Assembly: GCA_964598145.1 (NCBI GenBank)
Contig: CAZRAM010000001.1
Coordinates: 371,247-435,246, forward strand
DNA: 64,000 nucleotides
From: an uncultured Pseudomonadales bacterium
GTDB taxonomy: Bacteria; Pseudomonadota; Gammaproteobacteria; Pseudomonadales; JAHEIH01
Direction: 5' to 3'
The position numbers were made by a program, and so were the translations under genes. Every line of letters starts with the position of its first letter. Within the stretch, counting starts at the first letter, position 1. The notes under the pieces are model-generated. The model ran no database searches. It saw nothing but the letters and a program-made list of their open reading frames with translations, and was not told where the DNA came from. Positions 13,500 to 31,427 of the stretch are shown piece by piece.

Positions 13500-13504
13500 T
13501 TATA
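13500..13504. repeat. 5-bp target-site duplication TTATA (left copy)
   Basis: TTATA lies immediately outside the left IR and is identical to 29839-29843 immediately outside the right IR. Confidence 0.85.
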
Positions 13505-13542
13505 GGGGTTCTGTGGAAGAACCGACAAATTTGACAAGTTTG
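13505..13542 (+). repeat. left terminal inverted repeat (IRL) GGGGTTCTGTGGAAGAACCGACAAATTTGACAAGTTTG
   Basis: Matches the reverse complement of 29801-29838 at 37 of 38 positions (T/C difference at position 6). Confidence 0.9.
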
Positions 13543-13554
13543 GCTCTAACACGA

Positions 13555-14604
13555 TCATAGCGAGCCCTGGAGTTGCTTAAACTGCCCCTGGATCATCGCC
13601 TTTTCCTGAAGTATTACCTTGTTCTCGTCAGTCAGAAATGCAATCTTGTCCTGGCAGGCTTTTAGTTCGGCTTTGGTGGTCTCCAATACTTGAGCTGACA
13701 CAGCCAATTCCTTGCTCACATCTGCTTTTTGGGTGGTGATCACTGCCATGTTTTCCGCCATTTGTTCATTTTTATGCTGGGAATCCCGATACTTCGTCAC
13801 GGCGTCTTCAAGCTCGCGCTTCAGACCCTGGATATCTTCTATCTTTCCGTTTAGCTCCCTGTTTAGCGTTGCATTGGCTTGTTCAAGTTTACCGGCGTTG
13901 CTTTGTAACTGTGCATTAGCATCAAATAACTCAGACGCTTTGGACTCGGCTTGGGTGAGCCGGTGTTGCAGATCACGAATCTGATCTTTTAATCCCTGAA
14001 TAACAGTGCGAAACTGTTCGCGCTCCTGCTGACGGTCTTCCGCTGTGCGCTGCTGATAGTGTTCAAAGTGCTCTCGAATATCCTTGTTTTCCTGCTTGAG
14101 TTCAGCAACGCTTCCCTTCAGTTCAGTAGTCCTCGCAATCGCTTCGTCTCGTTGGGACTCGGCTTTAACCAGGCTGATACGCGCACCTTCCAGAAACTTT
14201 TTTTCCTCACCTTTTTCTTTGTTTTGCCGCTCAATCTGGCTTTCAAGATCTTGTTGTCGAGCAGTAAGCTGCGCGATTGTGTTTTTGGAATCGGTCAACT
14301 CTTTACGAAGCTCGTTATTGAAACCTTCAAATTCCTGACGGGCCTGCTCGATACGATGGTCGGCCATTTGTTGTACCCGCTCATACAGCGACTTTACCAC
14401 TTCGATTAAGTCGTTCGGTAGCCCGCCGATATCAGCCGCCTCTCCGTTATCTGATCGCCAACGTTTGAGCAGTGGTGCGATGGTGCTTTTGCTGCCGGTT
14501 CCGAGGTGTTCACGCACCCGGTCTACAGTAGGTTCTTGGCGCTGACTTTTGATCGCTTCAGCGGCTTTGGCAACGTCGTGGTAAGTGACACCGGCACGGG
14601 CCAT
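13555..14604 (-). CDS. TnpT-like resolution accessory protein (KfrA_N-type N-terminus + long coiled coil)
   Basis: From the ATG at 14604 (AGGA RBS upstream): MARAGVTYHDVAKAAEAIKSQRQEPTVDRVREHLGTGSKSTIAPLLKRWR, followed by about 270 aa of Q/E/K/L-rich coiled coil. It is divergent from the tyrosine recombinase gene, as tnpT is from tnpS in Tn4651-type elements. Confidence 0.55.
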   Translation of the reverse strand: MARAGVTYHDVAKAAEAIKSQRQEPTVDRVREHLGTGSKSTIAPLLKRWRSDNGEAADIGGLPNDLIEVVKSLYERVQQMADHRIEQARQEFEGFNNELRKELTDSKNTIAQLTARQQDLESQIERQNKEKGEEKKFLEGARISLVKAESQRDEAIARTTELKGSVAELKQENKDIREHFEHYQQRTAEDRQQEREQFRTVIQGLKDQIRDLQHRLTQAESKASELFDANAQLQSNAGKLEQANATLNRELNGKIEDIQGLKRELEDAVTKYRDSQHKNEQMAENMAVITTQKADVSKELAVSAQVLETTKAELKACQDKIAFLTDENKVILQEKAMIQGQFKQLQGSL

Positions 14605-14697
14605 GTGGATTCCTCTCAGATTATTTAATAACGTATTATGTAACACGTAAAATAACATTATATTGATGTTTTTCAAATACGATTGAATTTCAAATAT

Positions 14698-14729
14698 TAA
14701 CTAACGATAATGACCATTATCGTTGGTTA
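14698..14729. promoter_or_regulatory. candidate resolution-site core: 32-bp dyad TAACTAACGATAATG-AC-CATTATCGTTGGTTA
   Basis: Perfect 10-bp arms (AACGATAATG/CATTATCGTT) around a 2-bp centre, extendable to 15-bp arms with one mismatch. It lies in the 204-bp tnpT/tnpS divergent intergenic region. Confidence 0.45.
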
Positions 14730-14808
14730 TGATAATCAGGCATAATTTTTTCACTTGTAACGCCGGTACATAGCCGCCTTTTGAGCGACCGCGATAGGAA
14801 TTAGATTC

Positions 14809-15837
14809 ATGCACAGCAAACCACCCAAATTGACCACTGACTTATCATTACGTAATGAGCGATCATATCAGATTGCCCATCGGGAATCCGAAGCGCTGCG
14901 TCACTATCTCCTGGCAGCCACCTCTGACAACACGCGCAAAGCGTATCGCTCGGCCATTCGCCAATTCGAAAAATGGGGTGGCCGACTGCCTACCGACAGG
15001 GATACTGTCGTGCGCTATCTACTGATCAAAGCTGAATCTCTCAACCCTCGGACACTGGATCTCCACCTGACGGCCATCGGCCAATGGCACTACTACCAGG
15101 GAGTCGCTGATCCAGTAAAAGATCCTCTCGTGCGCAAAACGATGGAAGGCATCCGCCGCACTCACGGCCAACCCAAACGCAAAGCCAAGGCGCTGCGCCT
15201 GGAGCACATCGCACAGATGGTAAAGCATCTCCAGCAACTACCAGATAGCAAGAAGAAGTATCGGGATATCGCACTGGTGCTAACGGGCTTCTTCGGGGCG
15301 TTTCGTCGCAGCGAGTTGCTCGCAATACAAGTCACGGACCTGGTGTGGGAGCCTGAGGGCTTGATCATTCGGCTGCCCCGTTCCAAGACCGATCAGCAAG
15401 CTACTGGCTTAGTGCGAGCCCTGCCTTTTGCAGGGAATCCAACCTGTTGTCCAGCCAGAGCAATAAAGCAATGGATGGATACCGCTGATATAGCGATTGG
15501 TCCGCTGTTTCGGCCGGTCAATCGCTGGGATCAGGTTCAAGCCAGGCAATTGAATCCTGGGGCAATCAATGATGTGCTCAAAACCCTTGGTAAAGCCTGT
15601 CAGTTCGATTTTGTCCCCGAACTGAGCAGTCACAGTTTTCGTCGCGGCCTCTCTACCTCGGCGGCTCGGGAACGCGTGGACTATGAACTGATTAAAAAGC
15701 AAGGAGGTTGGAAAAGTGATGCTACCGTTTGGGAGTACATTGAGGAAGGACAGCAGTTCAACAATAACGCGTCAGTCATTCTGATGGAAAAAATGAGTTT
15801 GCTGCTGAACGCTGAATCTCCAAAAAAGGGAAAGTAA
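14809..15837 (+). CDS. tyrosine site-specific recombinase (TnpS-like cointegrate resolvase)
   Basis: 342 aa with catalytic motifs R (FFGAFRRSEL), H-x-x-R (SHSFRRG) and GGW...Y (QGGWKSDATVWEYI). Confidence 0.8.
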   Translation: MHSKPPKLTTDLSLRNERSYQIAHRESEALRHYLLAATSDNTRKAYRSAIRQFEKWGGRLPTDRDTVVRYLLIKAESLNPRTLDLHLTAIGQWHYYQGVADPVKDPLVRKTMEGIRRTHGQPKRKAKALRLEHIAQMVKHLQQLPDSKKKYRDIALVLTGFFGAFRRSELLAIQVTDLVWEPEGLIIRLPRSKTDQQATGLVRALPFAGNPTCCPARAIKQWMDTADIAIGPLFRPVNRWDQVQARQLNPGAINDVLKTLGKACQFDFVPELSSHSFRRGLSTSAARERVDYELIKKQGGWKSDATVWEYIEEGQQFNNNASVILMEKMSLLLNAESPKKGK

Positions 15838-15849
15838 ACAGGATCGAAA

Positions 15850-16374
15850 TCATCTCGGTGCGAACATGATAATGCCCATCCCTACCAGAGTGACGGCCAC
15901 GCCAACAAAATCCCATAGGTGCGGGCGAATCCCATCCACACCCCATAGCCACAGCATGGCTGTCGAAACATAGACGCCGCCATAGGCGGCATAAACCCGG
16001 CCCGCGGTGGTTGGATGAAGAGACAGTTGTAGTTGAACAAATATGTTTGTAACCGTAACAAATAAGTCTGTAACTAAAACGGTGGAATGCAGGCTGTAGC
16101 GTGATTTAAGGCGAAAATCGTTCATTCAGTTACAAATATAATTTTCGGTAAGGCATATCTGACGACGGTAGAATCGGGGCTCCAGCACTGTCCAGTTACA
16201 GACTTATTTGTTTGCCCACAACAGTAACCAGGCAAACAACGCCAGGCTGAACGCAGCCGGCAGCAGAACCCATGCGGATGCCGATTTCTTCAGCCAGAGG
16301 TATGGCAGGTAGCAGCCGACTATTTCCGCAATAGCTGTGATGATAAACAAACCGAGCGTGTAGAGGATGGACAT
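15850..16374 (-). pseudogene. ynfA: ynfA (UPF0060 small membrane protein) interrupted by a 193-bp insertion
   Basis: The 5' part (16374-16226) encodes [51 protein letters not shown]. The 3' part (16022-15850) encodes [57 protein letters not shown]. Removing the element and one TSD copy restores a 108-aa YnfA-like frame. Confidence 0.85.
16028..16220. mobile_element. 193-bp non-autonomous element with Tn7-like termini (TGT...ACA), subterminal repeats and a 5-bp TSD
   Basis: The ends are TGTAGTTGAACAAATATGTTTGTAAC... and (reverse complement) TGTGGGCAAACAAATAAGTCTGTAAC... An 18-mer AACAAATAAGTCTGTAAC is present at 16057-16074 (+) and 16195-16212 (-), with a variant at 16036-16053. ACAGT is duplicated at 16023-16027 and 16221-16225. 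There is no coding capacity. Confidence 0.8.
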
Positions 16375-16388
16375 ACGAAGTTCTCTTG

Positions 16389-17312
16389 TTAGTGCTGATC
16401 CGTTTGGCTGGGCACGGGTTGATCCCGGCAAGCTTCTTCGGGCAGTTCGATTTCAATTGTGGTGTGAGCCAGCGGGTATTGTTCGAGCGCCATAGCAATG
16501 GATTGTTTGATGGCACAGTATTCGTCAGGGCCAAAAACTCCCTCGTGATCCGCTACGATATGGGCCGTCAATACATGCTGTTCACCATCCAGGGACCAGA
16601 GGTGCTGGTGATGAATTCCGCTGATGCCATTAATGCCAATTAGTGTTCGCCGGATCTCTTCGTGAAGCGCCTTATCTGGAACAGCCTGAAAGAAAAGCTT
16701 GCAGGTTACCCAAAGATTCCGACACACATTAAACAGAATAAAGAGAGTAAACCCCACCGATAACAATGGGTCGAGAATAGGCCAGTCGGCAAACTGCAAA
16801 ACGATTGAAATAATCAGCACTGCCACCCACCCCAGCACATCTTCCAATAAATGCCAGTTCAATACCTTTTCGTTCAGCGTATTTCCCTTGCTAAGGCGAT
16901 AAGCAGCAATACCGTTGACGGTGACGCCCAGAATCGCCAGCGCTAACATGCCCTCGGTGACGGGCATCACTGGATTGGCCAGTCGGGGAATTGCTTCGCC
17001 TAATACCCACAGCGATCCGGCAATCAATACCAGGCCGTTGATCAGGGCGCCGAACAGGGACAACCGCCGGTAGCCATAGGTGAATTCGGTGTCGGCGGAT
17101 TTACGTCCCAGCCGGTTCAGGAACCAGGCGCTGCCAATGGACAGACTGTCGCCCAGATCGTGCACCGCATCGGCCATGATAGCCGTGCTGTTGGTGAGCC
17201 AGCCGCCGATGAATTCGATGATGGTAAAGCCCACGTTAAGAAAGAACGCCATTGCTATGCGGCTTGCACTTTCATCTTTGTGGTGTGAATGATCGTGTTG
17301 ATGCATGAGCAA
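16389..17312 (-). CDS. cation diffusion facilitator (CzcD-like Zn/Co/Cd efflux transporter)
   Basis: His-rich N-terminus [14 protein letters not shown], the TM2/TM5 metal-site motifs HDLGD and HLLED, and a C-terminal cytoplasmic domain. Confidence 0.85.
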
Positions 17313-17368
17313 CCCTTACACAATAAATGTACCTGCCCTGACCGTAACGATAAGGGCAGGCACAACGT

Positions 17369-20300
17369 TTATGCCATGTCGCTTAACTTGCCTTTTGAAA
17401 ACCAGGCAAACAGCACCGGCAATACAAACAGCGTCAAGAACGTAGCGGTTACCAACCCGCCCACGATCACACTCGCCAGAGGCTTTTGGATTTCTGCGCC
17501 GACACCATTCGACAGCAGCATGGGGATCAGGCCCAGTGCCGAGGTAATAGCAGTCATCAACACGGGCCTTAGCCTTGAAACCGCTCCATCAAACACCGCA
17601 TCCGATACTTTAAGGCCGTCCGCAATCCGTTGATTGATGCTTTCCACCATGACAACGCCATTCAGTACAGCGACCCCGAACAGGGTGATGAAGCCCACTG
17701 AGCTGGGTACCGACAGATACTGGCCGGAAATCCAGAGTGAAAACACGCCACCAATCACCGCCAGCGGGACATTCACCAGAATCAGCATGGCCTGGCCAAC
17801 CGAGGCAAAGGCAAAATAAAGCAACAAGGCAATTAATCCCAGCGAAACCGGCACCACCAGTGCTAAACGCTTTTGCGCTCTCTGCTGGTTTTCAAACTGG
17901 CCACCGATATCGACGGAATAGCCGGTGGGCAGGTCCACTTGCTCCACAATCGCCTGACGAATATCGGCAACCACGCTGCCCATGTCCCGTCCCTGAACAT
18001 TGGCCTGAATTACAACCCGACGCTGCACGTCATCACGACGTACCTGCGGTGGTCCAGATGCGATACTGACTTCCGCCACATCCCCTAGGCGTACCCAGGC
18101 ACCTGACGGGGCCTGTAAGCGCAGATCGGCAATGGTTTCACGGTCTTCGCGAAACCGCTCGGCGAGCCGCACGTAGATGTCGTAACGCTCGTTGCCATTG
18201 ATGATCTGGCCGGCACTGGCACCTCCCAGCCCTTCGCGTACCAGCTCCATCACGTCGCCCACGGCCAGACCGTAACGGGACAAAGCTCTGCGGTTCGGCT
18301 TCACCACCAGTTGAGATTCACCGGCGATCTGCTCCATGGCCACATCGCGCGCCCCTTCGATTTCTTTCACTGCGGCCTCAATGGCCTGGCCCTTTTCGGC
18401 CAGCACGGCAAGATCGGGACCAAACAACTTGATGGCCAGCTGCGCTTTGACGCCCGAGAGCAACTCGTCCACACGGGTTGCGATGGGTTGCGAGAAGTTG
18501 AGCAGTAAGCCTGGGTGTTGCTCCAGTTTCTGTTCCATCAATGACTGGAGTTCATAACGGTTGTCTGCACTGGTCCATTCCGGCACCGGTTTAAGGCCAA
18601 TATAGATCTCGATGTTATTCACCGGCTCAGGATCGCCGCCGATTTCAGCCCGGCCAATACGTGACAGTGCATAGGTTACCTCTGGGAACTCCATCAACTT
18701 GGCCTCCAGTTTGGGGGCCACTTCCAGCGCGGTATCCAGACTGGAAGAAGGCGCCAGGGTGACGCGCAGATTAATGGTACCCTCCTCCAGTTCAGGCACG
18801 AATTCGGTACCCAAGCGGGGCAGAACCAACGCGGCCGCTACCACCATAATGGCAGCGACACCCACCACCACTTTGCTGTGTCCCATCGCCCAGGCTAAAC
18901 CTTTACGATAGAGCAGATCGAGCGGCTTCAATACAAAGCTCTCGCGTTGGCGAACCCCCCTGCGAAAGAGATAGGTTGCTAGTGCAGGCACGATGATCAG
19001 GGCCACCAACACCGCCGAGAGCATGGCGAGCATGATACTGATGGCCATGGGTTGAAACAGTTTGGCTTCGACACCTTCAAAGCTGAACAGTGGCATGAAG
19101 ACAACCAGAATAATGGCCGTGGCAAAAAAGATGGGGCGAGCGACTTCCTTACCGGCTTCCTGCAGGCGCAAGGCAATACCATGACGGTCGTGGGCCGCAT
19201 CAACAGGGTCCACGTCATCGGAATCCACCCGCGATTGTCTCTGGGTATCATGTTCAGCATCCGGGTGCGTCAGATGTTTAAACATGTTCTCCACCATTAC
19301 TACGGAGCCATCCACCAACATGCCAATGGCGACCGCAATCCCCCCCAGCGACATCAGATTGGCCGACAATCCGAACCAAGCCATCACCATTAAAGCGATT
19401 CCAATAGATATCGGGATGGACATCAACACCAGAAAGGTGGCGCGCAGGTTCATCAGGAATAGCGCAAGGATCACGACGATGAAAATAAACGCCAGCAGCA
19501 GGGCATTGACCACGGTCTGTACGGCCTGGGTGATCAAATCCGCCTGATCGTAAAATGCCTCGAAGCGAACACCTTCCGGTAATGCCTGGTTAATACGCTC
19601 AATGCGTGCATTGACTCCATCAATGGTGGCCTTGGTGTTGGCCCCCATGCGCTTGAGCACGATGCCGGACACCACCTCGCCGAGATTCTCCACCTTGTCG
19701 TCGGCGTTCTTGCGCGTCATGGTCACCGCTCCCTGACGGATCTCACTGCCCAGGGCCACTTGCGCCACGTCGGACACGGTGATCGTAGTACCGTCCACGG
19801 TTTTCAGTGGCACCTGACGGATCTGTTCCAAGCCCTTCTCACCATGATCCAGCCAACCCGTACCCCGGATCACCAGTTGCTCCTGGCCCCGGTTCATATA
19901 CCAACCGCCGACGTTGGTGTTGTTGCGCTCCAGTGCCATCATGACGTCGTCCTGGGTCAGCTCGTAGGCCAACAGTCGGGACGGGTTTAAGTTAACCTGG
20001 TACTGACGCACCTCACCGCCAAAGGAGAGCACATCGGTCACGCCCTCGGCCGGGATCAATAGCAGCTTCACCACCCAGTCGTTCAAGCTACGCAAAGCCA
20101 TGGCGTCGAAACCGGCATCGGGTTCTGCCACCAGCAGATACTGATAGACCTGACCCAGGCCGGAAGTATTCGGGCCCATTTCCGGTGTGCCGACGCCATC
20201 GGGGATCAGCTCCTTGGCAGCCTGAAGCCGTTCAAATACCAGTTGCCGGGCAAAATAAATATCGGTGCCTTCTTTAAAGACTACGGTAACGCCGGACAGG

Positions 20301-20566
20301 CCGGTTTTGGAAATTGAGCGCACCTCTTCCACATCCGGTAAGGCGTACATCACGGCTTCGATGGGATAGGTAATAAGCTGTTCCACCTCTTCGGCAGCCA
20401 GCCCCGGTGCTTCGGTATTGACCGACACCTGCACGTTGGTGACATCCGGAAAAGCATCCAGATTCAGTTTGGGAATAATAAAAACGGCACTGACCGTTAG
20501 TGTGATCAGGGCTATCACCACCAGCAATCGGTTGATGACCGCCCAATCGATAATTCGGTTAAACAT
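17369..20566 (-). CDS. heavy-metal efflux RND transporter, CzcA/CusA family
   Basis: 1065 aa with 12-TM RND architecture and the TM4 motif VAIGMLVDGSVVMVEN. It follows the adaptor and outer-membrane-factor genes in C-B-A order. Confidence 0.95.
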   Translation of the reverse strand: MFNRIIDWAVINRLLVVIALITLTVSAVFIIPKLNLDAFPDVTNVQVSVNTEAPGLAAEEVEQLITYPIEAVMYALPDVEEVRSISKTGLSGVTVVFKEGTDIYFARQLVFERLQAAKELIPDGVGTPEMGPNTSGLGQVYQYLLVAEPDAGFDAMALRSLNDWVVKLLLIPAEGVTDVLSFGGEVRQYQVNLNPSRLLAYELTQDDVMMALERNNTNVGGWYMNRGQEQLVIRGTGWLDHGEKGLEQIRQVPLKTVDGTTITVSDVAQVALGSEIRQGAVTMTRKNADDKVENLGEVVSGIVLKRMGANTKATIDGVNARIERINQALPEGVRFEAFYDQADLITQAVQTVVNALLLAFIFIVVILALFLMNLRATFLVLMSIPISIGIALMVMAWFGLSANLMSLGGIAVAIGMLVDGSVVMVENMFKHLTHPDAEHDTQRQSRVDSDDVDPVDAAHDRHGIALRLQEAGKEVARPIFFATAIILVVFMPLFSFEGVEAKLFQPMAISIMLAMLSAVLVALIIVPALATYLFRRGVRQRESFVLKPLDLLYRKGLAWAMGHSKVVVGVAAIMVVAAALVLPRLGTEFVPELEEGTINLRVTLAPSSSLDTALEVAPKLEAKLMEFPEVTYALSRIGRAEIGGDPEPVNNIEIYIGLKPVPEWTSADNRYELQSLMEQKLEQHPGLLLNFSQPIATRVDELLSGVKAQLAIKLFGPDLAVLAEKGQAIEAAVKEIEGARDVAMEQIAGESQLVVKPNRRALSRYGLAVGDVMELVREGLGGASAGQIINGNERYDIYVRLAERFREDRETIADLRLQAPSGAWVRLGDVAEVSIASGPPQVRRDDVQRRVVIQANVQGRDMGSVVADIRQAIVEQVDLPTGYSVDIGGQFENQQRAQKRLALVVPVSLGLIALLLYFAFASVGQAMLILVNVPLAVIGGVFSLWISGQYLSVPSSVGFITLFGVAVLNGVVMVESINQRIADGLKVSDAVFDGAVSRLRPVLMTAITSALGLIPMLLSNGVGAEIQKPLASVIVGGLVTATFLTLFVLPVLFAWFSKGKLSDMA

Positions 20567-20581
20567 GGGGTCTCCTACTGC

Positions 20582-21940
20582 TTAGTGGTTATGGGGGTCA
20601 AAGCCGCCCTTGGCGATCTGAGAGGCAACAAAGAAAGCGCCCTGAGTGACGATGCGAGCCCCCGGACCGACACCGCTAATTTCACGTAGCGGCCCGAGCG
20701 CTCGACCCAGCTCCACCTCCACTGGCTGGAATTCGCCAGGATGGTCTTCCACGAACACCGTCCAATCTCCGTCTGCGCCGCGCATCAGTGCGGTTTCGGG
20801 TACCGCTAGCACGGGCCTTTTAGTCTGGAATCGGAAATACACCTCGGCGAACTGGCCAGGGTGCAGGCGGTGTTCCGGGTTATTGACCAACAGGCGCACG
20901 GTACGGGTACGGGAGATGGGATCAATGGTGTGCGCCTCCTGAGTGACCTTGGCGTTTACACGGACATCCCCAGCCACCACTTCCGCCCGCGTTCCCGCGC
21001 CCAGCGTCAGGGAGAGATCGGCGGGCAGGTGGGCCTCCACCCAGAGTTGCTTTTCATCGGCCAACGCAATCAAGGGCGCGCCCGCCTCGATGCGCTGCCC
21101 CTGCTCGAAATCATCTCTAAGCACCGCGCCGTCAATCTCGGCATGCAGGGTATACTCCCCTAATGCAACAGATTGCTGAGAAGCGACCAACGCTTGCAAG
21201 TCCGAGGCGGAAAGGCCGTAGGCCAGCAGCGTCGCCCGTGCCGCTTCTAGGTTGGTTTTGGCCGTGATGTAACGCTGCTCACCCACGGTTTTGCGCCCAA
21301 GTTCCTGTACTCTCTGCCATTCAGGCCAAGCCGTGCGGTAATTGGCTTGTGCTTGCGCCACGGTTTCACTGAACAGAGTAACCAGCGGCTGACTCTGTTC
21401 GACGTGATCGCCCAGGGCGACATGGCGGCGCAGCACCACGGAGGGCACCCGGGGCGATACCCGGTAACTGGTGTAGCCGTTGGAAAGGATCTCCCCCGGT
21501 GCGTAAAGCTGATAATCGACCTTTCTGGGAGTCAGTGGGTTTACCTGAATATCGGCCAGGGTCATTTGCGCCGGGTTCAGTGAGGCAGAAGTAGCTTCTT
21601 CGTGACCTCCATGCCCACCATGATTATCGTGGTCACCGCCCTCGCTATGCTCTTCATGCCCGTGTTCTGAGCCGGAGTTGTGCTCGTCGTGGGCACTGTG
21701 TTCATCATGATTTTCGTCGCCATGATCATCGTGGCCGTGCTCGCTGTCAGGCTTATGCGCATCATGCTCTTTATGGTTTTCCTCACGATGATCGTCATGA
21801 TTATCCTGTTCGCTATGGGGTGCCGCCGTTGTCGCTTTTTCCTGCCCATGCTCAGACTCAGATTCTTTGGCGTGGCTGGCGGTTGCGGTCGCAAGACCAG
21901 CCACCAAAATGGCTACCAGTGTTTTATTCATGTTTATCAT
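20582..21940 (-). CDS. efflux RND periplasmic adaptor (CzcB/CusB family) with His/Asp/Glu-rich N-terminal extension
   Basis: Signal peptide, then about 100 aa of HxxH/DH/EH low-complexity sequence, then the membrane-fusion-protein core (barrel-sandwich/beta-barrel pattern ...GAVLRDDFEQGQRIEAG...). Confidence 0.9.
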   Translation of the reverse strand: MINMNKTLVAILVAGLATATASHAKESESEHGQEKATTAAPHSEQDNHDDHREENHKEHDAHKPDSEHGHDDHGDENHDEHSAHDEHNSGSEHGHEEHSEGGDHDNHGGHGGHEEATSASLNPAQMTLADIQVNPLTPRKVDYQLYAPGEILSNGYTSYRVSPRVPSVVLRRHVALGDHVEQSQPLVTLFSETVAQAQANYRTAWPEWQRVQELGRKTVGEQRYITAKTNLEAARATLLAYGLSASDLQALVASQQSVALGEYTLHAEIDGAVLRDDFEQGQRIEAGAPLIALADEKQLWVEAHLPADLSLTLGAGTRAEVVAGDVRVNAKVTQEAHTIDPISRTRTVRLLVNNPEHRLHPGQFAEVYFRFQTKRPVLAVPETALMRGADGDWTVFVEDHPGEFQPVEVELGRALGPLREISGVGPGARIVTQGAFFVASQIAKGGFDPHNH

Positions 21941-21946
21941 TCCTGT

Positions 21947-23185: not shown

Positions 23186-23202
23186 ATTGATGCTCCTGAA
23201 AT

Positions 23203-23631: not shown

Positions 23632-23712
23632 GATGTTTCACCCTAAAATAAATACCAATTGTTCGCTGTAACCCAAGGCTACAGAGGCTGATGACGTGCT
23701 GTTGAGGCGCGA

Positions 23713-24081
23713 TCAGGCGATTGGAGGGCGAAACAGAGAGGGGGGAATACCAGAGGTGAGGTTGGCCTGATAGTCGGCTTGTCCGTTTTCTGAGAATAAA
23801 TCGGCTAAGTGTGAAGTGGCTCCGATCAGAACGACAGAGCCGTGGCCATGACAATGGCAGCAATGGTGGCAGTCATATACAGACTGTCCGGGCTGATCGG
23901 GTGTCTGCTTGGCGAGCAGATTGTCGTTGTGGGTATCAGTGGCAGTGGATTGATGCGAATGGTCGAATTCCAGGTGCTCCGTCCCGGATTGATGAAGCTG
24001 GTGAACGTCCGCCATGGCAGCCACAGATTGCAGGGCAATCAGTAGAGCCAGTAGACAAGTTAAATGATGGCGGATGTTCAT
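23713..24081 (-). CDS. small secreted His/Cys-rich protein (CzcI/DUF2946-like)
   Basis: Signal peptide, then HQLHQSGTEHLEFDHSH, then the CHHCCHCHGHG cluster, then a C-terminal ...PPSLFRPPIA tail of the type seen in small metal-resistance accessory proteins. Confidence 0.5.
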   Translation of the reverse strand: MNIRHHLTCLLALLIALQSVAAMADVHQLHQSGTEHLEFDHSHQSTATDTHNDNLLAKQTPDQPGQSVYDCHHCCHCHGHGSVVLIGATSHLADLFSENGQADYQANLTSGIPPSLFRPPIA

Positions 24082-24172
24082 GTGAAATGTGGAGCCCTTA
24101 TGTTGTCAGGTTCAAAACACTAGCTGCCATAGACTATCATATTATAGAAAAGTTCACCAAAACCGTTTCCGG

Positions 24173-25072
24173 TCAGGATTTCAGCTGCAAAATACGTCGT
24201 GCACCGTTTAGGACAACGACGCCAATAATGAGACCAATCACCAGATCCGGATAGCGGGAACCGGTCCAGGCGACCAGGCCACCAGCCAGGATAACCCCCA
24301 GATTGGCAATCACGTCGTTGGCGGAGAATATCCAGCTGGCTTTCATATGCGCTCCACGATTCCTGCTTTTGGCGATCAGCACAAGGCACAACACATTGGC
24401 CGCCAAAGCAGCCAGGCCCATACTCATCATCAGGACGGACGCTGGCTCGCTGCCAAACATAAACCGCCGCACAACTTCACTCAAAGCGCCAAACGCCAAC
24501 ATCAGTTGCAACCAGCCAGAAAAATGTGCCGAGCGCAGTTTCAACCGAGTGCTGCGCCCAACGGCATAGAGCGCCACGCCATAAACGGCGGCATCAGCGA
24601 ACATGTCCAGGGAATCGGCGATCAAGCCAGTGGATTGCGCCCACCAGCCGATGGTGATTTCAATGACAAACATGATGCCGTTGATGGCGAGTAGCCATTT
24701 CAGAATACCCGATTCTTTTTGTGCCTCCTGTTGTGCATCTTCATGTGCTTGGGCGATGGCATCACTGTCTACGGGTGATGTGATTTCAAGCGTAGCGCCC
24801 AAACCAACAGAGTGCATCCGTTCCTCAATCACATCGGCATTATCCCCATGAAAGATACGCACTATGCGATTGGGGGTATCAAATTCCAGCGTTACTTTGG
24901 GTTCCACACTATCCAATGCCATGCGGATCACGCCTTCCTCCGAAGGGCAGTCCATCCTGGAGACATGATACTCGCTAACATAGCCGCCTTGGACGACGCT
25001 TGTGCCATCGGAAATCTGTGGTGTGTTGTCTCGTGCATCGCTGTTACAGCTAGCACAGCATTGCTCAGTCAT
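24173..25072 (-). CDS. CDF-type cation efflux membrane protein with N-terminal HMA-like domain
   Basis: N-terminal CCASC cluster and a ferredoxin-like domain with MDCPSEEGVIRMAL (the MDCPxEE variant of the HMA motif). This is fused to a six-TM cation_efflux core (ADSLDMFADA..., SANDVIANLG...). Confidence 0.75.
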   Translation of the reverse strand: MTEQCCASCNSDARDNTPQISDGTSVVQGGYVSEYHVSRMDCPSEEGVIRMALDSVEPKVTLEFDTPNRIVRIFHGDNADVIEERMHSVGLGATLEITSPVDSDAIAQAHEDAQQEAQKESGILKWLLAINGIMFVIEITIGWWAQSTGLIADSLDMFADAAVYGVALYAVGRSTRLKLRSAHFSGWLQLMLAFGALSEVVRRFMFGSEPASVLMMSMGLAALAANVLCLVLIAKSRNRGAHMKASWIFSANDVIANLGVILAGGLVAWTGSRYPDLVIGLIIGVVVLNGARRILQLKS

Positions 25073-25104
25073 ATTAAAACGCTCTTGTTTTTTCCTGGTT
25101 ATGC

Positions 25105-25135
25105 AGTTTAAATTCTATAGTCACTATAGAATCAA
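25105..25135 (-). promoter_or_regulatory. MerR-type promoter/operator: TTGATT-N19-TAAACT with 21-bp perfect dyad ATTCTATAGTCACTATAGAAT in the spacer
   Basis: On the minus strand, -35 TTGATT (25135-25130), a 19-bp spacer and -10 TAAACT (25110-25105). The dyad at 25112-25132 lies between the divergent merR-family and CDF-HMA genes. Confidence 0.6.
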
Positions 25136-25152
25136 GAGTGAAATTGGTGGTT

Positions 25153-25542
25153 ATGAAAATAGGAGAATTGGCGAGCGTTACCGGCTGCTCAATACAGACG
25201 ATCCGTTATTATGAAAAAGAAAATCTGCTGCCCTCAACCCAACGCACCGAGGGAAATTTTCGCTTGTATGACAAAGCGGCCGTCGACCTGTTGCTGTTCA
25301 TTAAACACTGCCGCAGTCTGGATCTCAGCTTGAAGGAAATCCGTCAACTATTGGCGCTCAAACGCTCGCCTGGCGCGCAATGTGATAAGGTGAATCGGAT
25401 GATGGACGCCCATATTCAACAAGTGGAAGACCGCATTGCCGAGCTGACGCAATTGCGTAGGCAACTCAAAGCGTTGCGCCGCAGTTGCTCAAGCGACCGC
25501 ACGGTGGAGCAGTGCGGCATACTGCAAAATCTGACCACCTAG
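25153..25542 (+). CDS. MerR family metal-responsive regulator (CadR/ZntR/PbrR-like)
   Basis: N-terminal HTH MKIGELASVTGCSIQTIRYYEKENLL, a dimerisation helix, and Cys residues at QCDKV and CSSDRTVEQCG typical of metal-sensing MerR proteins. Confidence 0.85.
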   Translation: MKIGELASVTGCSIQTIRYYEKENLLPSTQRTEGNFRLYDKAAVDLLLFIKHCRSLDLSLKEIRQLLALKRSPGAQCDKVNRMMDAHIQQVEDRIAELTQLRRQLKALRRSCSSDRTVEQCGILQNLTT

Positions 25543-25721
25543 TCAGAATCCGAAGCGGTAACATTGGTTTTCTGATCATTGGAAGTCACACGTCTACCCT
25601 GGATATCCCATTCCACCTTGTTCGGCGATTTTTCACTGAGGTCGGGCTCATGGCGCAGTTTCTGGCCAGTTCCAGGGAAACTGCTCGAGGCTATGTCCGT
25701 GTAGACAGGCGAGGCAAGGCA

Positions 25722-25751
25722 TTGACGTAGATCGCTCGTTTCGAATATTAT
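25722..25751 (+). promoter_or_regulatory. candidate sigma70 promoter of the toxin-antitoxin module (TTGACG-N18-TATTAT)
   Basis: Good -35/-10 hexamers 37 nt upstream of the antitoxin ATG. An imperfect inverted repeat TCGTTTCGA...TCGAACGA spans the -10. Confidence 0.35.
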
Positions 25752-25787
25752 GGACGAATCGAACGATATTTGGTGAGGTACCAGACC

Positions 25788-26048
25788 ATGGACACACTTT
25801 CTGCCAATGAAGCCAAAACCCAGTTTGGTGACCTGCTGCTAAAAGCGCAACGTGCGCCAATCCAGATCAATAAAAACGGAAAACCGGTTGCTGTGGTTAT
25901 CTCAATGGATGAGTACGAGAGCATTAAAGCGCTCAAGCTGAGATTGTTGCAGTCGAGGGCCACTCAGACCAAAGCTGATATCAAAGCAGGTAACACCGTT
26001 GATGGTGAAGCATTTTTTAATGATTTGGAATCAGGTCACCACGACTAG
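25788..26048 (+). CDS. Phd/YefM family type II antitoxin
   Basis: MDTLSANEAKTQFGDLLLKAQRAPIQINKNGKPVAVVISMDEYESI is the canonical Phd/YefM N-terminal fold pattern. A GGTGAGG RBS lies upstream of the ATG at 25788. Confidence 0.75.
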   Translation: MDTLSANEAKTQFGDLLLKAQRAPIQINKNGKPVAVVISMDEYESIKALKLRLLQSRATQTKADIKAGNTVDGEAFFNDLESGHHD

Positions 26049-26074
26049 ACGATAAAATTTCTGGGGGAAGAAAA

Positions 26075-26353
26075 ATGTCTGCTGTCGAGCTGAATGCAGA
26101 ACAACTTCAGATGGTAAAGATCATCCATGACCACGCCCTCCGGTTTCCTCTTACCGAAGCCGGGGATGAGCAATTATTGCAAACCTGCTACGACTACATG
26201 GATGTGTTCAAACGGGTGATGGATAGCACCTCTCACATCCAAATGGATTACATCTGTCAGCAATACGATGGCTTTTATCGTTTTGCCAAACTCATGGAAA
26301 TGCTGGCACAGGGGATCGCCGATGGCATTGTCGATGTTCCCAAGGATCATTAG
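26075..26353 (+). CDS. hypothetical acidic protein (92 aa) between antitoxin and toxin genes
   Basis: ORF with a GGGGGAAG RBS, predicted helical. By my count it has 15 Asp/Glu against 7 Lys/Arg. I do not recognise a family. Confidence 0.45.
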   Translation: MSAVELNAEQLQMVKIIHDHALRFPLTEAGDEQLLQTCYDYMDVFKRVMDSTSHIQMDYICQQYDGFYRFAKLMEMLAQGIADGIVDVPKDH

Positions 26354-26368
26354 TCCCGCCAATACGCC

Positions 26369-26677
26369 ATGTCAAATTACCGCTTAACCCCGGATGCTCA
26401 ATCCGATCTTATCGACATTCGTCGTTTTACCCTAGACCGATGGGGAGAAGCGCAGTCGAAGAAATACCTGTTCGAACTCCGACAAACCCTTCACCTGCTG
26501 GCTGAAACCCCGTCCCTGGGAAAGCCCAGGCCGGATGTAGGGGAGGACGTGTTGAGCTTCCCCCACATCAGTCATGTCATTTATTACGTGGTTCATGCGC
26601 AGCAGTTGGTGGTGTTTGGTGTCCTGCACAAGCGGATGGTGCCAGTGAATCACCTGGATGGGCGCGAGGTGATTTAA
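26369..26677 (+). CDS. ParE/RelE-superfamily type II toxin (ParE-like)
   Basis: MSNYRLTPDAQSDLIDIRRFTLDRWGEAQSKKYLFELRQTLHLLAETPSLG...VIYYVVHAQQLVVFGVLHKRM matches the ParE pattern. Confidence 0.8.
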   Translation: MSNYRLTPDAQSDLIDIRRFTLDRWGEAQSKKYLFELRQTLHLLAETPSLGKPRPDVGEDVLSFPHISHVIYYVVHAQQLVVFGVLHKRMVPVNHLDGREVI

Positions 26678-26717
26678 ATGTGGCTGACGATCGGGCCGCA
26701 TTGAATCGGCACTCGCT

Positions 26718-29700
26718 ATGGAAAATATCGAACGTATTCAGCTGTTATCCAGCACGGAAGTCGAAGAGTTATATGCTCGCCCAGAATTCAATACCCATGA
26801 ACAAAGCCTGTATTTTTGATTAAGTCCGACAGAACGCGCCGCGCTTGAGCAGTTTCGCAATACCCAGACCCGTATCCACTTCATCCTGCAATTGGGTTAT
26901 TTCAAGGCCAAGCAGCAGTTTTTTAACTATTCGCTCGATGAGGTCAGTGCCGATGTTGAATATATCGTTGCAACCTATTACAACGGTGCAGATGCGGCAC
27001 AGTTCACCGGAAACCTCTCTCGTGAATATTCGCGTAAGCAACGCCAGGCGATACTGTCACTTTTCGACTACCGAAGCTGGTCGCCTCAATTTAGAGCTGA
27101 AATAGAATCCCACATCGGTCTGTTATTACGCTATTACCCCAAAGGGCACAGTGCTTTCCGGCAGTTGCTCGCGTTTTTCGATCACCAGAATTTAATCATT
27201 CCGTCCTATCGAACGTTCCAGGACATGTTCAGCCGCGCCTTTGCCGCCGAGGAACAGCGGTTAAATAACGCCATCTCTTCCATACCGTCATCAATCAGTG
27301 GCCAGCTTATGACGCTGGTGCGGCGAGATGATGGTATCACGGCGCTCAACATCATTCGCGCGGATCAAAAAGACTTTCAGTATACGGCGGTCAAATCGGA
27401 AGTGGACAAAGCCCTGCGGATTGAGGAGTTGTACGAGTTTGCGAACGGTTTTATTCCGTCTCTGGGGTTGTCAAAGAATGCCGTTCGCTACTATGCCGAT
27501 GTTGCCGAACAGTATGCCGCATCCCGCTTACGTCGGCTGAGCAAACCGCAAAAATGGCTCTATGCTTTGTGCTTTGTTTACCACCGCTACCAACAGATTA
27601 TGGATAATCTGATCGTTAGTTTTTGCTATCACACCCGCGCCATTATGGACGCCGGCAAGACCTACGCCTCAATGGCTCATATGGAGCACAGCTCCAAGGT
27701 GGTGACCGACTTTCCCAAGCTGGCCAAGTTTTTGAAGTGGTTCCCAAATCGAAACCCCAACATGAGTCAGGATGAACTGAATGAAGCAGCCTACAGCATG
27801 TTGCCCAAAGAGCAGTTTTCAGCCATGGCAGAGTTTCTGGAAGGCAAATCTTTCGATAAGAAAGCCGCCTTGTGGGAGTACTATGGAAAATCTTCTCGCA
27901 TATTTGCACTGTATCTTCGCCCGATATTTACAACAGTCAAGCTGGAGTACTACAAGGAAAACAGCTACATCGGCGAATTGATCAATCTACTGAAAGCGCA
28001 TTATGCCAGCGGGAAAAGTCCATCGGATTTAAAAATTTGTGATGACCTGGGGTTTACCATCCCCAAAAACATGAATCAATATTTGAAGCGGGAACCGAAT
28101 GACACGCACATCGATCCGTACCTGTTCGAGTTCTTTGTTTACCAGAAAATTTATCATGAGATTGACCGTGGCCGTCTCTATTGCAATGACAGTGTCTCTT
28201 ACTGTGATATCGATACCGATCTGGTGGACGACGCACTGGTAGACGATGTTGAGAAGATCGCGGCGGAGTTTGGTTATCCCAAGATACCCATCTACTGTGA
28301 TCAGCGACTTGAGGAGGCGCTTCAGGAGCTGAACAACGCCTGGGAGCGAACGACTCACAATATCCGTGAGAATAATAATCATGGATTCAGTGTTCGAGAA
28401 ACCAAGACCGGACAACAACACTGGAGTTTGCTCTATGACAGTGTTGAAAAGCTGGATGATGCGTTCTTTAAAAACCTGCCCAAGGTGGACATTGCCAGTA
28501 TTGTCATGTTCATCGGCGATCGGATTGGAATGTGGAGCGCATTTACCCACATGAAAGATCGCTACACCAAGCGGAAAAAACCGCTGCCTCTGGCGATCAA
28601 CGCCTGCTTGTTATCAGAGGCGTTTGGGTTCGGTACATTGAAAATGGCTGATATGTCTGACCTGGAAATCAGCCAGTTACGTGCAATGCGGGAGGATTTC
28701 GTGCGGGTGGATACGCTATGCGCCGCCAATGAAATTGTCAGTAACCACATTCATTCGCTTCCCATATTTAATCAGTGGAATTTGATGGATGAGAAAGTAC
28801 TAGCGGATGCGGATGGACAAAAATTTGCGACCACAGACAGTACAATTCAATCCCGTTACTCCAGGAAGCACCTTGGCAAAGGCCGTGGTATCTCACTCTA
28901 CACGCTGCTCGCCAACTATGTGGCAGTTAATGCGAAAAATATCGGCCTGAACGAGTACGAAGGACATTCGCTGTACGATATGATCTACAACAACAAAACC
29001 GATATTGATATCCACATGGTGACCGGTGATAACCATTCATTGAACAAGCTGAATTTTGTCACGCTGGATTCCATCGACGTGGATTATGTCCCCAGCATCA
29101 AAAATGTGCGAGACGCTGCTGACGATATCTATACCGCTGAACCGTTAGACTATGACACCGGAATCCTCAAACCCAAGGGCGTGATCAATGTTGATCGTAT
29201 CCGCTCACAACGTCGAGGTGTCATGCGGGTATTACTTTCACTCATCATGCAGGAGAACACCCAGAGCAATATCATCCGTAAGCTCAACTCACATGCCCGT
29301 TATGCCAGGCTCAAAGCCGCGCTGTTTGAATATAATACCATCTTCAAGAGTATCCATGTTCTCAATCTGATTGACGATATGGAGCTCAGGAAAGCAATCC
29401 GAAGCGCCCGTAATCGCACAGAGGCCTACCATCAGCTTCAGAGCAATATCCGGAAGACTTATAACGGCATCTTTCAAGGCAAAAGAATCGTCGAAAACCG
29501 GGTCAGTGCCCATGCTGCCAGGTTAATCGCCAACTGTATCGTGGCCTACAACAGCATGATCTTGAATGCCGTGTACCAAAGGATGCTGGCCAACGGCGCG
29601 CCTCAAGCGGTCATCGATGAATTTATCCGGATTTCACCGATTGCCTGGACACATACGTTATTTACAGGTCGGTATAACTTCAAGAAAAGCAGCGGGAAAA

Positions 29701-29780
29701 TTGATGTAGACGCGATGGCAAGGATATTGGAGGATCATGTGAAACAGCATTTTTGGCGTGACGATGGGCCTCAGAATTGA
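26718..29780 (+). pseudogene. tnpA: Tn3-family transposase tnpA with in-frame TGA at codon 34
   Basis: The frame from the ATG at 26718 reads MENIERIQLLSSTEVEELYARPEFNTHEQSLYF*LSPTERAALEQFRNTQTRIHFILQLGYFKAKQQFF... The stop is at 26817-26819. The ORF-track start at 26892 is an internal TTG in the same frame. Both sides of the stop look like the DUF4158 N-terminal domain of Tn3 transposases, and the remainder is a full-length DDE Tn3 transposase. Confidence 0.85.
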
Positions 29781-29795
29781 TGATAAATTGGTCGT

Positions 29796-31427
29796 TTATG
29801 CAAACTTGTCAAATTTGTCGGTTCTTCCACAGGACCCCTTATAGGTGGCTCGTGCAATTTGCTCCTGTAGGGCGATCATTGGCCAGGCCAATGTTTCGAT
29901 ATCGCTAGCATCGGCGTGAATACTACAGGGTTCTAATTGTTCAAACAGGGAATGGCACGCGTCGGCAATATCCGGTTGGTTAACCATGGTCATCGCGTAT
30001 TGCAGGCCTTGCATTCGCGCGAGTAATAACTCGATAACGCCGTAGCTATCGGTTTCGTGGGCAATATCAAGTTGCAGGATGATATCGCTAACTTCTTTAA
30101 AGGCATGAGCCAATACAATGCTGACACTGTCGCTGTAGTAACGCTGCGGCATCAACTCGCTGTCGCTCACATCAGTCCAGTGGGACTTGGCGGCAGCATC
30201 TAATGATTGGTCGGCCATCACCTTAAAGCGCTCGGGTAGAAACAGTAGCCCTTCGGCGAGACGAAGTAAGGTCTCCCTTTCAGGTGCGTTGTTTAACAGC
30301 GTATCGATATCTTGTTGGCATTGTTGGGTTATGTCGCCCGTGTGGGGTAGCTCACACATGCTCACTGCTGCATTGATTTCGGCCATGTGCTGAAGTAACG
30401 CTAATCGTCCTTCATCAGTGATGGGTTGATCCTCAAGTAAAATAGCGAGGTGCAGACTCATTTGTTCCACGGCCATTTCGATACTTTTAACGAGGGCTTG
30501 GTAGACATCGCTACCGGGTTCACGCATGCGTTTAATACCCAGCGATATATCGCGGTCGCTGAATGGCAATGTCGGCAGGCGGTATAATTTTGCAAGCTTG
30601 ACCGAGCGTTCTCGGGTCGAGTGCGACAGTGCTATCAGAGCAAGAAATTCACGTTTGATAGCGAGCGATAGCGGTTTTTTGAGAGCGTTTTCTGGGTCTT
30701 TGTACAACGTCATTAAATGTTGCTCAACCAAAAGCAGCCATTGCTTGCGTTGCTTGGTCAGTCTTAAATCTCCGTCTTGCATGGCTTCGATGATGCAGTT
30801 CAACAACCAAAACAGCTCGGCGATGGGGGCGTTGCCACAGACTTTTTGAAGGTGAGTAGAGGCCTTGGCCAACAGGTTAAGGGCAGCGGCGGGCTGCTTA
30901 TCTATGGCGAGTCGGGCTTTTTTGAAGAGGGGAATAATCTTGCTGAGCGGACTCTTAATATCGCTCGCCGGCAGATTTTTAAGGGCTTTAAGCGGCGATA
31001 CGCTGGGGTCTATCGTAATGCCGAGCAGTTGGCTTTCAATAAGGGCCTTGTCGCCACTGTACTGGCGCAAATGATTGATGGCATCAAGCAAGATGGGGCC
31101 ATTGCGCTGCCCTTGTTCGATGACCCAGTGGCAGTACCGTGGCACCAGAAAGAGCGGGTACGCGGTGGCGCTAATGACATCGTCGCTCCATTCAGCGCCG
31201 CTCTGATGAAGTTGTGTGGCGGCATCGTGGAGAGCCTGTAACAACAGCGCAGCGTCGGACAAGCCGGCCATAGACAGCGCACCAATACAACGCGAAAGCG
31301 CCTGCTGCAGCGAGCTTAAATGAGCTTCGTCGCGGGCAACGTGGAGGTATTCGAGCCATTGTTGAGCCTGAGCCAAATCCTGCTCTATTTCTGAAACAAC
31401 TGTGCGCAGCGAGGTTGTATTTATCAT
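29796..31427 (-). CDS. hypothetical helical protein (543 aa as it stands); C-terminus re-coded by the transposon IR
   Basis: Long ORF with no catalytic motif recognised. The last 13 codons (GSCGRTDKFDKFA) and the stop lie inside IRR. It may be a FimL/ChpA-N-terminal-like protein, but I have not verified this. Confidence 0.6.
   Translation of the reverse strand: MINTTSLRTVVSEIEQDLAQAQQWLEYLHVARDEAHLSSLQQALSRCIGALSMAGLSDAALLLQALHDAATQLHQSGAEWSDDVISATAYPLFLVPRYCHWVIEQGQRNGPILLDAINHLRQYSGDKALIESQLLGITIDPSVSPLKALKNLPASDIKSPLSKIIPLFKKARLAIDKQPAAALNLLAKASTHLQKVCGNAPIAELFWLLNCIIEAMQDGDLRLTKQRKQWLLLVEQHLMTLYKDPENALKKPLSLAIKREFLALIALSHSTRERSVKLAKLYRLPTLPFSDRDISLGIKRMREPGSDVYQALVKSIEMAVEQMSLHLAILLEDQPITDEGRLALLQHMAEINAAVSMCELPHTGDITQQCQQDIDTLLNNAPERETLLRLAEGLLFLPERFKVMADQSLDAAAKSHWTDVSDSELMPQRYYSDSVSIVLAHAFKEVSDIILQLDIAHETDSYGVIELLLARMQGLQYAMTMVNQPDIADACHSLFEQLEPCSIHADASDIETLAWPMIALQEQIARATYKGSCGRTDKFDKFA
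29801..29838 (-). repeat. right terminal inverted repeat (IRR) GGGGTCCTGTGGAAGAACCGACAAATTTGACAAGTTTG (read on minus strand)
   Basis: 37/38 match to IRL. It lies 20 nt downstream of the tnpA stop. Confidence 0.9.
29839..29843. repeat. 5-bp target-site duplication TTATA (right copy)
   Basis: Identical to 13500-13504. Confidence 0.85.

Follow-up and report, generated by a model that had tools for sequence, protein, structure and literature searches.

A Tn3-family metal-efflux transposon with a TnpS/TnpT resolution module and a nonsense codon in tnpA

Introduction

Transposons of the Tn3 family are divided into subgroups by their transposase, TnpA, and members of the family are known to exchange modules. 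In Tn4651 and TnXax1 the site of crossover is an inverted repeat in the DNA that separates tnpS from tnpT (PMC7157771). Toxin-antitoxin (TA) genes belong integrally to the transposition modules of Tn3-family elements (PMC7157771), and Phd/YefM-ParE pairs upstream of tnpA have been described in the Tn3000 subgroup, as in TnSpu1 and TnAbapMCR4.3 (Table 1, PMC7157771). A putative marine Tn3-family metal element with tnpS and tnpT has been described from Congregibacter litoralis KT71 and the Halomonas plasmid pZM3H1 (PMC3606827). Here we describe an element of 16,334 bp in a stretch of 64,000 nucleotides, called the window below, from contig CAZRAM010000001.1 of an uncultured Pseudomonadales bacterium (assembly GCA_964598145.1, positions 371,247 to 435,246). 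We consider it very probable that the element is a Tn3-family unit transposon, inserted through TnpA-mediated replicative transposition, and that the copy in the window is now non-autonomous.

Ends of the transposon

The transposon occupies positions 13505-29838 and has 38-bp inverted repeats (IRs) at both ends, the left one (IRL, 13505-13542, plus strand) reading GGGGTTCTGTGGAAGAACCGACAAATTTGACAAGTTTG and the right one (IRR, 29801-29838) lying on the minus strand. When IRL is compared with the reverse complement of IRR, 37 of the 38 positions are equal; the sole mismatch is at position 6, a T on the left and a C on the right, and the likeness breaks off sharply after 38 bp. Both repeats begin with GGGG (GGGGT(T/C)CTG...). 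With up to three mismatches allowed, the IR pattern occurs at just these two sites across the 64-kb window and in none of 100 dinucleotide-preserving shuffles, and the match is far above chance. Direct reading gives the pentamer TTATA on both sides of the element, at 13500-13504 and 29839-29843, as a 5-bp AT-rich target site duplication (TSD). The initial annotation, made from the letters of the window, had reported these repeats and pentamers and had taken them as hallmarks of the Tn3 family. Both statements were borne out when the ends were recomputed, and the Tn3-type DDE transposase gene inside the element belongs to the same set of family features.

The T/C asymmetry at position 6 is constant in every copy compared. 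The T-bearing left end is the same in L018-L021 (L numbers denote loci fetched for comparison), and IRR of L008-L017 and L019 is that of the window, bar one substitution in L012, with different DNA beyond it in each. From left to right the element consists of IRL, tnpT, a 204-bp candidate resolution site (rst), tnpS, cargo genes, a Phd-X92-ParE cassette, tnpA and IRR. The cargo begins after tnpS with ynfA and continues with a gene for a cation diffusion facilitator (CDF), the czcCBA genes, genes for two small secreted proteins, a second CDF gene and cadR.

Insertion site and host gene

The element interrupts a FimL-like host open reading frame (ORF) on the minus strand (29796-31427), and IRL ends 98 bp from sohB (12372-13406, minus strand; SohB equivalog NF008745, 502 bits). 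When the empty site was rebuilt in silico by removing 13505-29843, the minus-strand ORF from 31427 regained its natural stop and encoded 534 amino acids (aa), ending ...ATYKRHSV. With the element in place the ORF reads into IRR and encodes 543 aa, ending ...ATYKGSCGRTDKFDKFA; its last five native codons (...YKRHSV*) are exchanged for 14 codons encoded by the repeat (...YKGSCGRTDKFDKFA*). Because the rebuilt ORF gains its native stop, the insertion lies inside the last five codons of the gene, and not between sohB and its upstream neighbour as had been proposed. The FimL label comes from precomputed Pfam assignments (FimL_2nd and FimL_C) for homologues that are identical or belong to the same 90% cluster; a Pfam search of the window protein itself gave no match.

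Two relatives have the site uninterrupted. When one genome per species was scanned with the protein as guide, a FimL-like protein 86% identical to that of the window was found in L003, a Cellvibrionales metagenome-assembled genome (MAG), whose DNA runs unbroken as ...GCCACC-TATCA-ACACCATAGTG... into sohB, with TATCA at the position of the pentamer on the minus strand. A look-up of the 90%-identity cluster gave a second homologue, P0071, of 534 aa and ending ...ATYQRHSV. It is encoded on Logan contig L032, with sohB and then a DUF411 gene directly downstream. At the fimL-sohB junction both L003 and L032 have the pentamer position singly and lack IRs and czc genes. The initial annotation had named czc/CDF genes at this locus in related genomes, without IRs or TSD, as an outcome that would speak against it, and the two relatives do not show this. 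In JGI metagenome contigs, an exact-pattern search for the rebuilt empty site gave no match. Tn3-family elements are not known to excise precisely.

The element was inserted at the fimL-sohB junction and is not ancestral there, in agreement with the original proposal. GC content does not discriminate the element, being 52.5% inside and 52.6% outside it, and this equality would fit with a metal-resistance cluster that is ancestral at the locus, its repeats being the remnants of two independent flanking elements. To such an origin we give hardly any credence, as it is at odds with the uninterrupted junction in the two relatives, and with the same 16.3-kb unit, bounded by both ends and a TSD of its own, in the unrelated context of L019. 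It appears instead that the transposon entered a Cellvibrionales-like gammaproteobacterial chromosome by replicative transposition through TnpA, and that the insertion duplicated TTATA within the last five codons of the fimL-like gene, with sohB 98 bp downstream.

One further locus, L018 (ERZ650152 NODE_126), carries the element at the same insertion site and with the same TSD as the window. Since its flanks are also about 99.9% identical to those of the window, L018 is placed in the same host lineage.

Other copies and their spread

In BLAST comparisons of the 16,334-bp element with the fetched loci, identities were 96-100% and the alignments ended exactly at transposon coordinate 1 or 16334. 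L019 is a second complete copy, 99.5% identical, with both IRs, an intact 1020-aa tnpA and its own TSD, TGGTA. Marine metagenomes and the genera Thalassolituus, Oleibacter and Ketobacter provide at least eight more insertion contexts, in which the identity is 96-99.96%. Beyond the right end there are seven other, unrelated flanks (ATATA, TACTT, TAGAA, TTCAA, ATATT, TCCAT and TAATA), and two more contexts were seen at the left end; none of these flanks matched those of the window.

Copies that are only 2-8 substitutions apart from the window copy over 5-11 kb occupy unrelated contexts, which implies that the spread was recent and horizontal. From the window copy, L008 differs by 2 substitutions in 5.1 kb and L024 by 5 in 11.3 kb. 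Exact-protein look-ups found the intact TnpA on 472 contigs, TnpT on 622 and X92 on at least 1,000; for the ParE sequence the index of the collection lists 1,729 blocks. Among the named sources are Thalassolituus maritimus, Thalassolituus sp., Oleibacter sp. HI0075, Ketobacter sp. MCCC 1A13808 and Oceanospirillaceae MAGs. A megablast of the whole element against the PLSDB plasmids returned separate modules only and no complete element.

A Logan contig of 16,318 bp, equal to the interior of the transposon, was considered as evidence for multiple copies and rejected, as it starts at transposon base 9. Assuming the k of 31 that Logan assemblies presumably use, this start can be attributed to branching of the de Bruijn graph at 31-mers common to IRL and IRR.

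The element is a precisely bounded and widespread marine metal-resistance transposon, with near-identical copies in Thalassolituus, Oleibacter, Ketobacter and the Cellvibrionales-like host, and this makes it useful for following czc genes as they are transferred horizontally in the ocean.

The resolution module

A divergent pair of genes for a tyrosine recombinase and a coiled-coil protein had been predicted beside IRL, and this was found to be correct. The 349-aa TnpT (13555-14604, minus strand) has a KfrA_N N-terminus (Pfam E 8e-25) followed by a long coiled coil. It is 29% identical over 207 aa (E 6e-11) to TnpT of Tn4651, whose sequences were taken from pWW0, and the two are colinear from M1. 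The start was placed at the ATG at 14604, which aligns with M1 of the Tn4651 protein, and a length of 349 aa has been called in other assemblies too. TnpS (14809-15837, plus strand, 342 aa) belongs to the Pfam family Phage_integrase and is 34% identical to TnpS of Tn4651 over 308 aa (E 1e-54). Its candidate catalytic residues, R166/167, K193, H275, R278, W301 and Y310, lie in conserved motifs, and FRRSE, SHSFRRG, GGWKS and WEYI line up with the motifs of Tn4651. The TnpS of the window differs from the widespread allele by one substitution, Q35L.

The 204 bp between tnpT and tnpS (14605-14808) are the candidate rst. They contain a palindrome with 15-nt arms at 14698-14712 and 14715-14729, TAACTAACGATAATG-AC-CATTATCGTTGGTTA, which we propose as the core of the crossover site. 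The modules of pMAQU02, pMIT1002 and pPS1 keep both the GATAAT...TTATCG core and the outer TAAC / G(T/C)TA unchanged, and the interiors of the arms vary. No second pair of inverted repeats was clearly identified in the 204-bp region. As in other members of the family, TnpA would bind both 38-bp IRs and produce a cointegrate, which TnpS, with TnpT as helper, would then resolve at rst.

A tyrosine recombinase gene near one end could also be that of an integrase, and the element would then be a genomic island integrated by TnpS and not a DDE transposon. This is very improbable. The copies occupy at least nine different sites without a common att-like sequence, with 5-bp duplications that are variable and AT-rich, and the 38-bp IRs with their GGGG start belong to the IR family of the ends that stand beside homologous tnpA genes in Spartinivicinus and Xenorhabdus. 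Moreover, TnpS is homologous to the cointegrate resolvase of Tn4651.

The transposase gene

The tnpA gene (26718-29780, plus strand, 1020 codons) encodes a Tn3-family DDE transposase and lies next to IRR, the position given in the initial annotation. The Pfam families DDE_Tnp_Tn3 (E 6e-82) and DUF4158 are recognised, with the N-terminus missing from the match; the profile matches begin at position 51 (Pfam) and 37 (NCBIfam), and NF033527 scores 472 bits, below its cut-off of 500. The frame opens at the ATG at 26718, 41 nt past the ParE stop, and this is the start of the 1020-aa TnpA genes elsewhere.

The transposon had been described as complete, and in this respect the description has to be corrected. 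Codon 34 of tnpA (26817-26819) is a TGA, the result of a single C-to-G change from serine to stop. The TGA is found in the window and in L025, a Logan assembly of SRR15635848, only, whereas codon 34 is TCA (Ser) in 12 other copies and TCC (Ser) in the Xenorhabdus homologue; TnpA is intact, with 1020 aa, in 11 other copies. The longest remaining ORF starts from the TTG at 26892 (codon 59) and encodes 962 aa. In the next 380 nt the only in-frame restarts are this TTG and the TTG of codon 150, and no Shine-Dalgarno-like sequence precedes the TTG of codon 59. In Tn4430, of the Tn3 family, the N-terminal DBD1 of TnpA is the key determinant of IR recognition (PMC9579193). Because the nonsense codon removes residues of the N-terminal domain, the window copy should be unable to mobilise itself. 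Judged from its sequence, this copy is probably non-autonomous, with its ends and resolution module intact. The C-to-G change would have left it fixed in place, and any movement would require an intact TnpA of its own lineage in trans.

Some observations weigh against this interpretation. The two assemblies with the TGA may be from one project, and the codon may then be an artefact common to both, or a minority allele. The TGA may also be read through at a low level, or the shortened TnpA may be active. L018, although at the same insertion site, has TCA (Ser) at codon 34, together with other lesions in tnpA. For the resolution step, the assignment of the palindrome at 14698-14729 to the crossover is drawn by analogy.

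If the TGA were an error of sequencing or assembly, if it were read through, or if the protein from the TTG at 26892 were functional, the transposon would be fully autonomous and active. The IRs, tnpS, tnpT and rst are all intact and the substitutions relative to intact copies (those in L008 and L024 given above) are very few. We nevertheless think this unlikely. The TGA stands in two assemblies, and the product from the TTG, which lacks a Shine-Dalgarno sequence, would be without the 58 N-terminal residues that include the conserved start of DUF4158/DBD1. Furthermore, tnpA is decaying elsewhere too: L015 has a frameshift, and L018 has a deletion as well as a 7-bp expansion.

The frameshift is the same in L015 and L018, where the repeat (TGCTTTG)2 at 27556-27569 has become three units. 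The expansion was seen in two copies from different contexts, and the tandem may be a recurrent hotspot of slippage. The deletion in L018 removes 141 bp (window 27004-27144) between 8-bp microhomologies, GGCACAGT. It is a possibility, and only that, that L018 represents independent decay of tnpA in sister lineages, or else that the interior of this metagenome contig is chimeric. With the non-autonomous copy of the window, these loci illustrate the early decay of a domesticated element, by a nonsense codon in the window and by a 7-bp expansion or a microhomology deletion in other copies.

The Phd-X92-ParE cassette

Immediately upstream of tnpA, and on the same strand, are the genes of a Phd/YefM antitoxin (25788-26048; PF02604, E 2e-15, with TIGR01552 also above cut-off for the cassette), of X92, a 92-aa ORF that matches no family (26075-26353), and of a ParE toxin (26369-26677; PF05016, E 1e-17). 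The layout is that of a type II TA system, with the antitoxin first and all genes in one operon, except that the conserved X92 stands between the two. The ParE-type TA module was earlier listed as part of the cargo. The cassette has three ORFs, not two, and it travels together with tnpA and IRR across the copies, so that it cannot be regarded as simple cargo. It would be expected to move along with the transposase. The same order, Phd-X92-ParE and then directly tnpA, recurs on a Xenorhabdus plasmid, and the X92 proteins are 68% identical.

X92 is acidic and all-helical, and the source annotations label it an 'arylsulfatase regulator'. No match was found in Pfam, in the PDB sequences or with Foldseek. 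A single-sequence AlphaFold prediction gave a four-helix protein, only one of the five models being confident.

In L008 and L012 the segment Phd-X92-ParE-tnpA-IRR, at 96-99.96% identity, is joined to other cargo: merTP and another pump of the resistance-nodulation-division (RND) type in L012, and a second Tn3-family tnpA with other TA genes in L008. The pattern points to recombination close upstream of the TA cassette, the breaks lying near transposon coordinates 11234 and 12215.

Metal-efflux cargo

The cargo between the two transposition modules amounts to 9.9 kb, and from its genes it would serve the efflux of Zn, Cd and Co, and perhaps Pb, through CzcCBA, two CDF proteins, a pair of small periplasmic proteins and a regulator of the CadR type with its likely operator. 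The czcA gene (17369-20566) scores 1046 bits with TIGR00914 (CusA/CzcA) against a cut-off of 701; czcB (20582-21940) encodes an adaptor of the RND family, with TIGR01730 above cut-off, and czcC (21947-23185) a Pfam OEP protein. All three are on the minus strand; a single operon thus encodes the CusA/CzcA permease, adaptor and outer-membrane factor of a heavy-metal efflux RND pump. The first CDF exporter (16389-17306, minus strand, 305 aa) is CzcD/ZitB-like, has the Pfam domains Cation_efflux and ZT_dimer, and scores 184 bits with TIGR01297, above cut-off. The second CDF-type transporter (24173-25072, minus strand, 299 aa) carries an HMA-like domain (MDCPSEE) at its N-terminus and lacks a cytoplasmic domain at the C-terminus; it shares 54% identity with the 'cation transporter' adjacent to cadR beside ISPpu12 on pWW0.

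The regulator (25153-25542, plus strand, 129 aa) is of the CadR/PbrR type within the MerR family, at 173.6 bits with TIGR02047 (CadR-PbrR) against a cut-off of 151.45. Between it and the divergent second CDF gene lies an inverted repeat whose perfect 9-bp arms enclose a single nucleotide, TTCTATAGT-C-ACTATAGAA (25117-25135), likely a MerR-family operator. Between czcC and this CDF gene are two minus-strand genes for small proteins with signal peptides. One of 142 aa (23203-23631) has no family match and no cysteine, and one of 122 aa (23713-24081) is rich in histidine and cysteine (CHHCCHCHGH) and has a weak match to the CopL family. The cargo as first listed stands in its two CDF exporters, its C-B-A pump and its MerR regulator, but just one of the two small proteins, and not both, is His/Cys-rich.

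The ynfA gene (UPF0060; 15850-16374, minus strand) is split into pieces of 56 aa and 91 aa and is intact, with 108 aa, in L022 and L013. The interruption is a nested insert of 193 bp on the minus strand (16028-16220) that resembles a miniature inverted-repeat transposable element, with a 5-bp duplication, ACAGT (16023-16027 and 16221-16225), and imperfect terminal repeats, TGTGGGCAAACAAATAAGTCTGTAAC and TGTAGTTGAACAAATATGTTTGTAAC. At the same ynfA junction L023 (8065-11234) has a 995-aa Tn3-family tnpA and shares the first 117 bp with the insert, which for this reason looks like what a deletion left of a second, nested element of the Tn3 family.

Surroundings of the insertion

In the window, and also in L018, a gene for NhaB (31595-33100, plus strand) separates the RNase T gene from the fimL-like gene. 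It is absent from L003 (5179-6001) and L032 (5208-6001), where RNase T directly precedes the fimL-like gene. This is a separate difference in gene order beside the insertion site. Further to the left, between 2000 and 6000 in the window, the GC content falls to 43-47% over a gene for a CHASE-domain hybrid histidine kinase (2361-4670) and part of a gene for a P-type cation ATPase (4861-7515), both on the minus strand.

Comparison with known transposons

From its separated resolution and transposition genes the element had been assigned to the Tn4651/Tn5041 subgroup, and this assignment does not hold for the transposase. TnpA is only 20% identical to TnpA of Tn4651, over residues 470-952 in the C-terminal half, and scores 58.9 bits; it scores more, 123 bits, against TnpA of Tn4653. 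A tblastn with TnpC of Tn4651 against the element gave a best E of 2.5, i.e. there is no tnpC. The relatives of TnpA were ranked by the pairwise scores of a tblastn against all PLSDB plasmids. The nearest were in Spartinivicinus (80%), Xenorhabdus (67%), Vibrio (61%), Legionella (60%) and Francisella (40%), and Bacillus elements reached 30-31% at about 500 bits. The best-scoring named relatives are the TnpAs of the Tn3000 subgroup: Tn4401 with 29.1% over the full length and 455 bits, Tn5504 (pJP4) with 28.5%, ISPsy30 with 27.6%, IS3000 with 26.6%, and ISKox2. Far weaker scores were obtained with Enterococcus elements of the Tn4430 subgroup (about 140 bits) and with ISXc4/TnAs1 (about 120-143 bits).

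In Spartinivicinus the element is a tnpR-tnpA transposon of 4.1 kb with a serine resolvase, its IRs matching at 29 of 38 positions, and that of Xenorhabdus reads IR-Phd-X92-ParE-tnpA-IR. Because of the TnpA ranking and these two elements, the TnpA, TA and IR module is placed in a lineage nearest to the Tn3000 subgroup. Since the identity to the Tn3000 TnpAs is below 30%, it would be a separate deep lineage, together with the elements of the Spartinivicinus, Xenorhabdus, Vibrio and Legionella plasmids. Judged by these scores, only the TnpS/TnpT resolution module is Tn4651-like.

The source annotations say 'Tn3 family transposase' only, and no published name for the transposon was found in the literature, a search that did not cover TnCentral or ISfinder. 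In the 2020 catalogue of 190 Tn3-family members, the elements with an S/T resolvase are all in the Tn4651 subgroup, and none is from these marine genera (Table S1, PMC7157771). Because the S/T resolvases there are all of that subgroup, the combination of modules seen here falls outside the catalogue. The element itself is built of known modules, from a very well-known family and with an ordinary cargo, and the current understanding of the Tn3 family is unchanged by these results. What it adds is modest: the module combination, a conserved extra gene in the ParE cassette, a very wide recent spread and visible decay of tnpA. A bolder interpretation is conceivable, which we would not favour at present. 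In it the element is the first described member of an uncatalogued Tn3 lineage that combines a deep Tn3000-like TnpA and Phd-X92-ParE with a Tn4651-type TnpS/TnpT, and that has recently (more than 99% identity, hundreds of contigs) become a major vehicle for Zn/Cd/Co efflux in marine hydrocarbon-degrading Gammaproteobacteria; X92 would then be an unrecognised third component of the ParE system.

Compared with Tn4651, Tn5041 and TnXax1, the element has the same divergent tnpT and tnpS, separated by about 200 bp of rst-like sequence that contains inverted repeats, the same position of the resolution module across the cargo from tnpA, and the same 38-bp IRs and 5-bp TSD. It differs from them in the distant TnpA, the missing tnpC and the Phd-X92-ParE cassette upstream of tnpA, and their cargo consists of xyl or mer genes, whereas here it is metal efflux. 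With the Tn3000-subgroup elements it shares antitoxin, toxin and tnpA in the same order and orientation. Those elements, however, have a serine resolvase, TnpR, beside the TA pair, while here TnpS and TnpT are 10 kb away and X92 stands between antitoxin and toxin; the identity of the TnpAs is below 30%.

The element of KT71 and pZM3H1 is, by its description, alike in having a hairpin-containing resolution site and a cargo of czcD and other metal-resistance genes, but it carries mer and czcD and no czcCBA. The tnpT-rst-tnpS modules of Alteromonas macleodii pMIT1002, Providencia IncC pPS1 and Marinobacter pMAQU02 have a DNA identity of 77-80% to that of the window. These elements also have tnpA at the far end of the architecture, and the IR of pMAQU02 is as in the window element at 36 of 38 positions. 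The cargo differs, being chrBA (chromate resistance) on pMIT1002 and mer (mercury resistance) on pPS1. Their TnpAs are outside the close relatives of the window TnpA, and several of these elements are truncated by insertion sequences. Seen beside these systems, the transposon illustrates the shuffling of modules in the Tn3 family, as TnpS/TnpT resolution is here combined with a TnpA lineage whose nearest relative has a serine resolvase.

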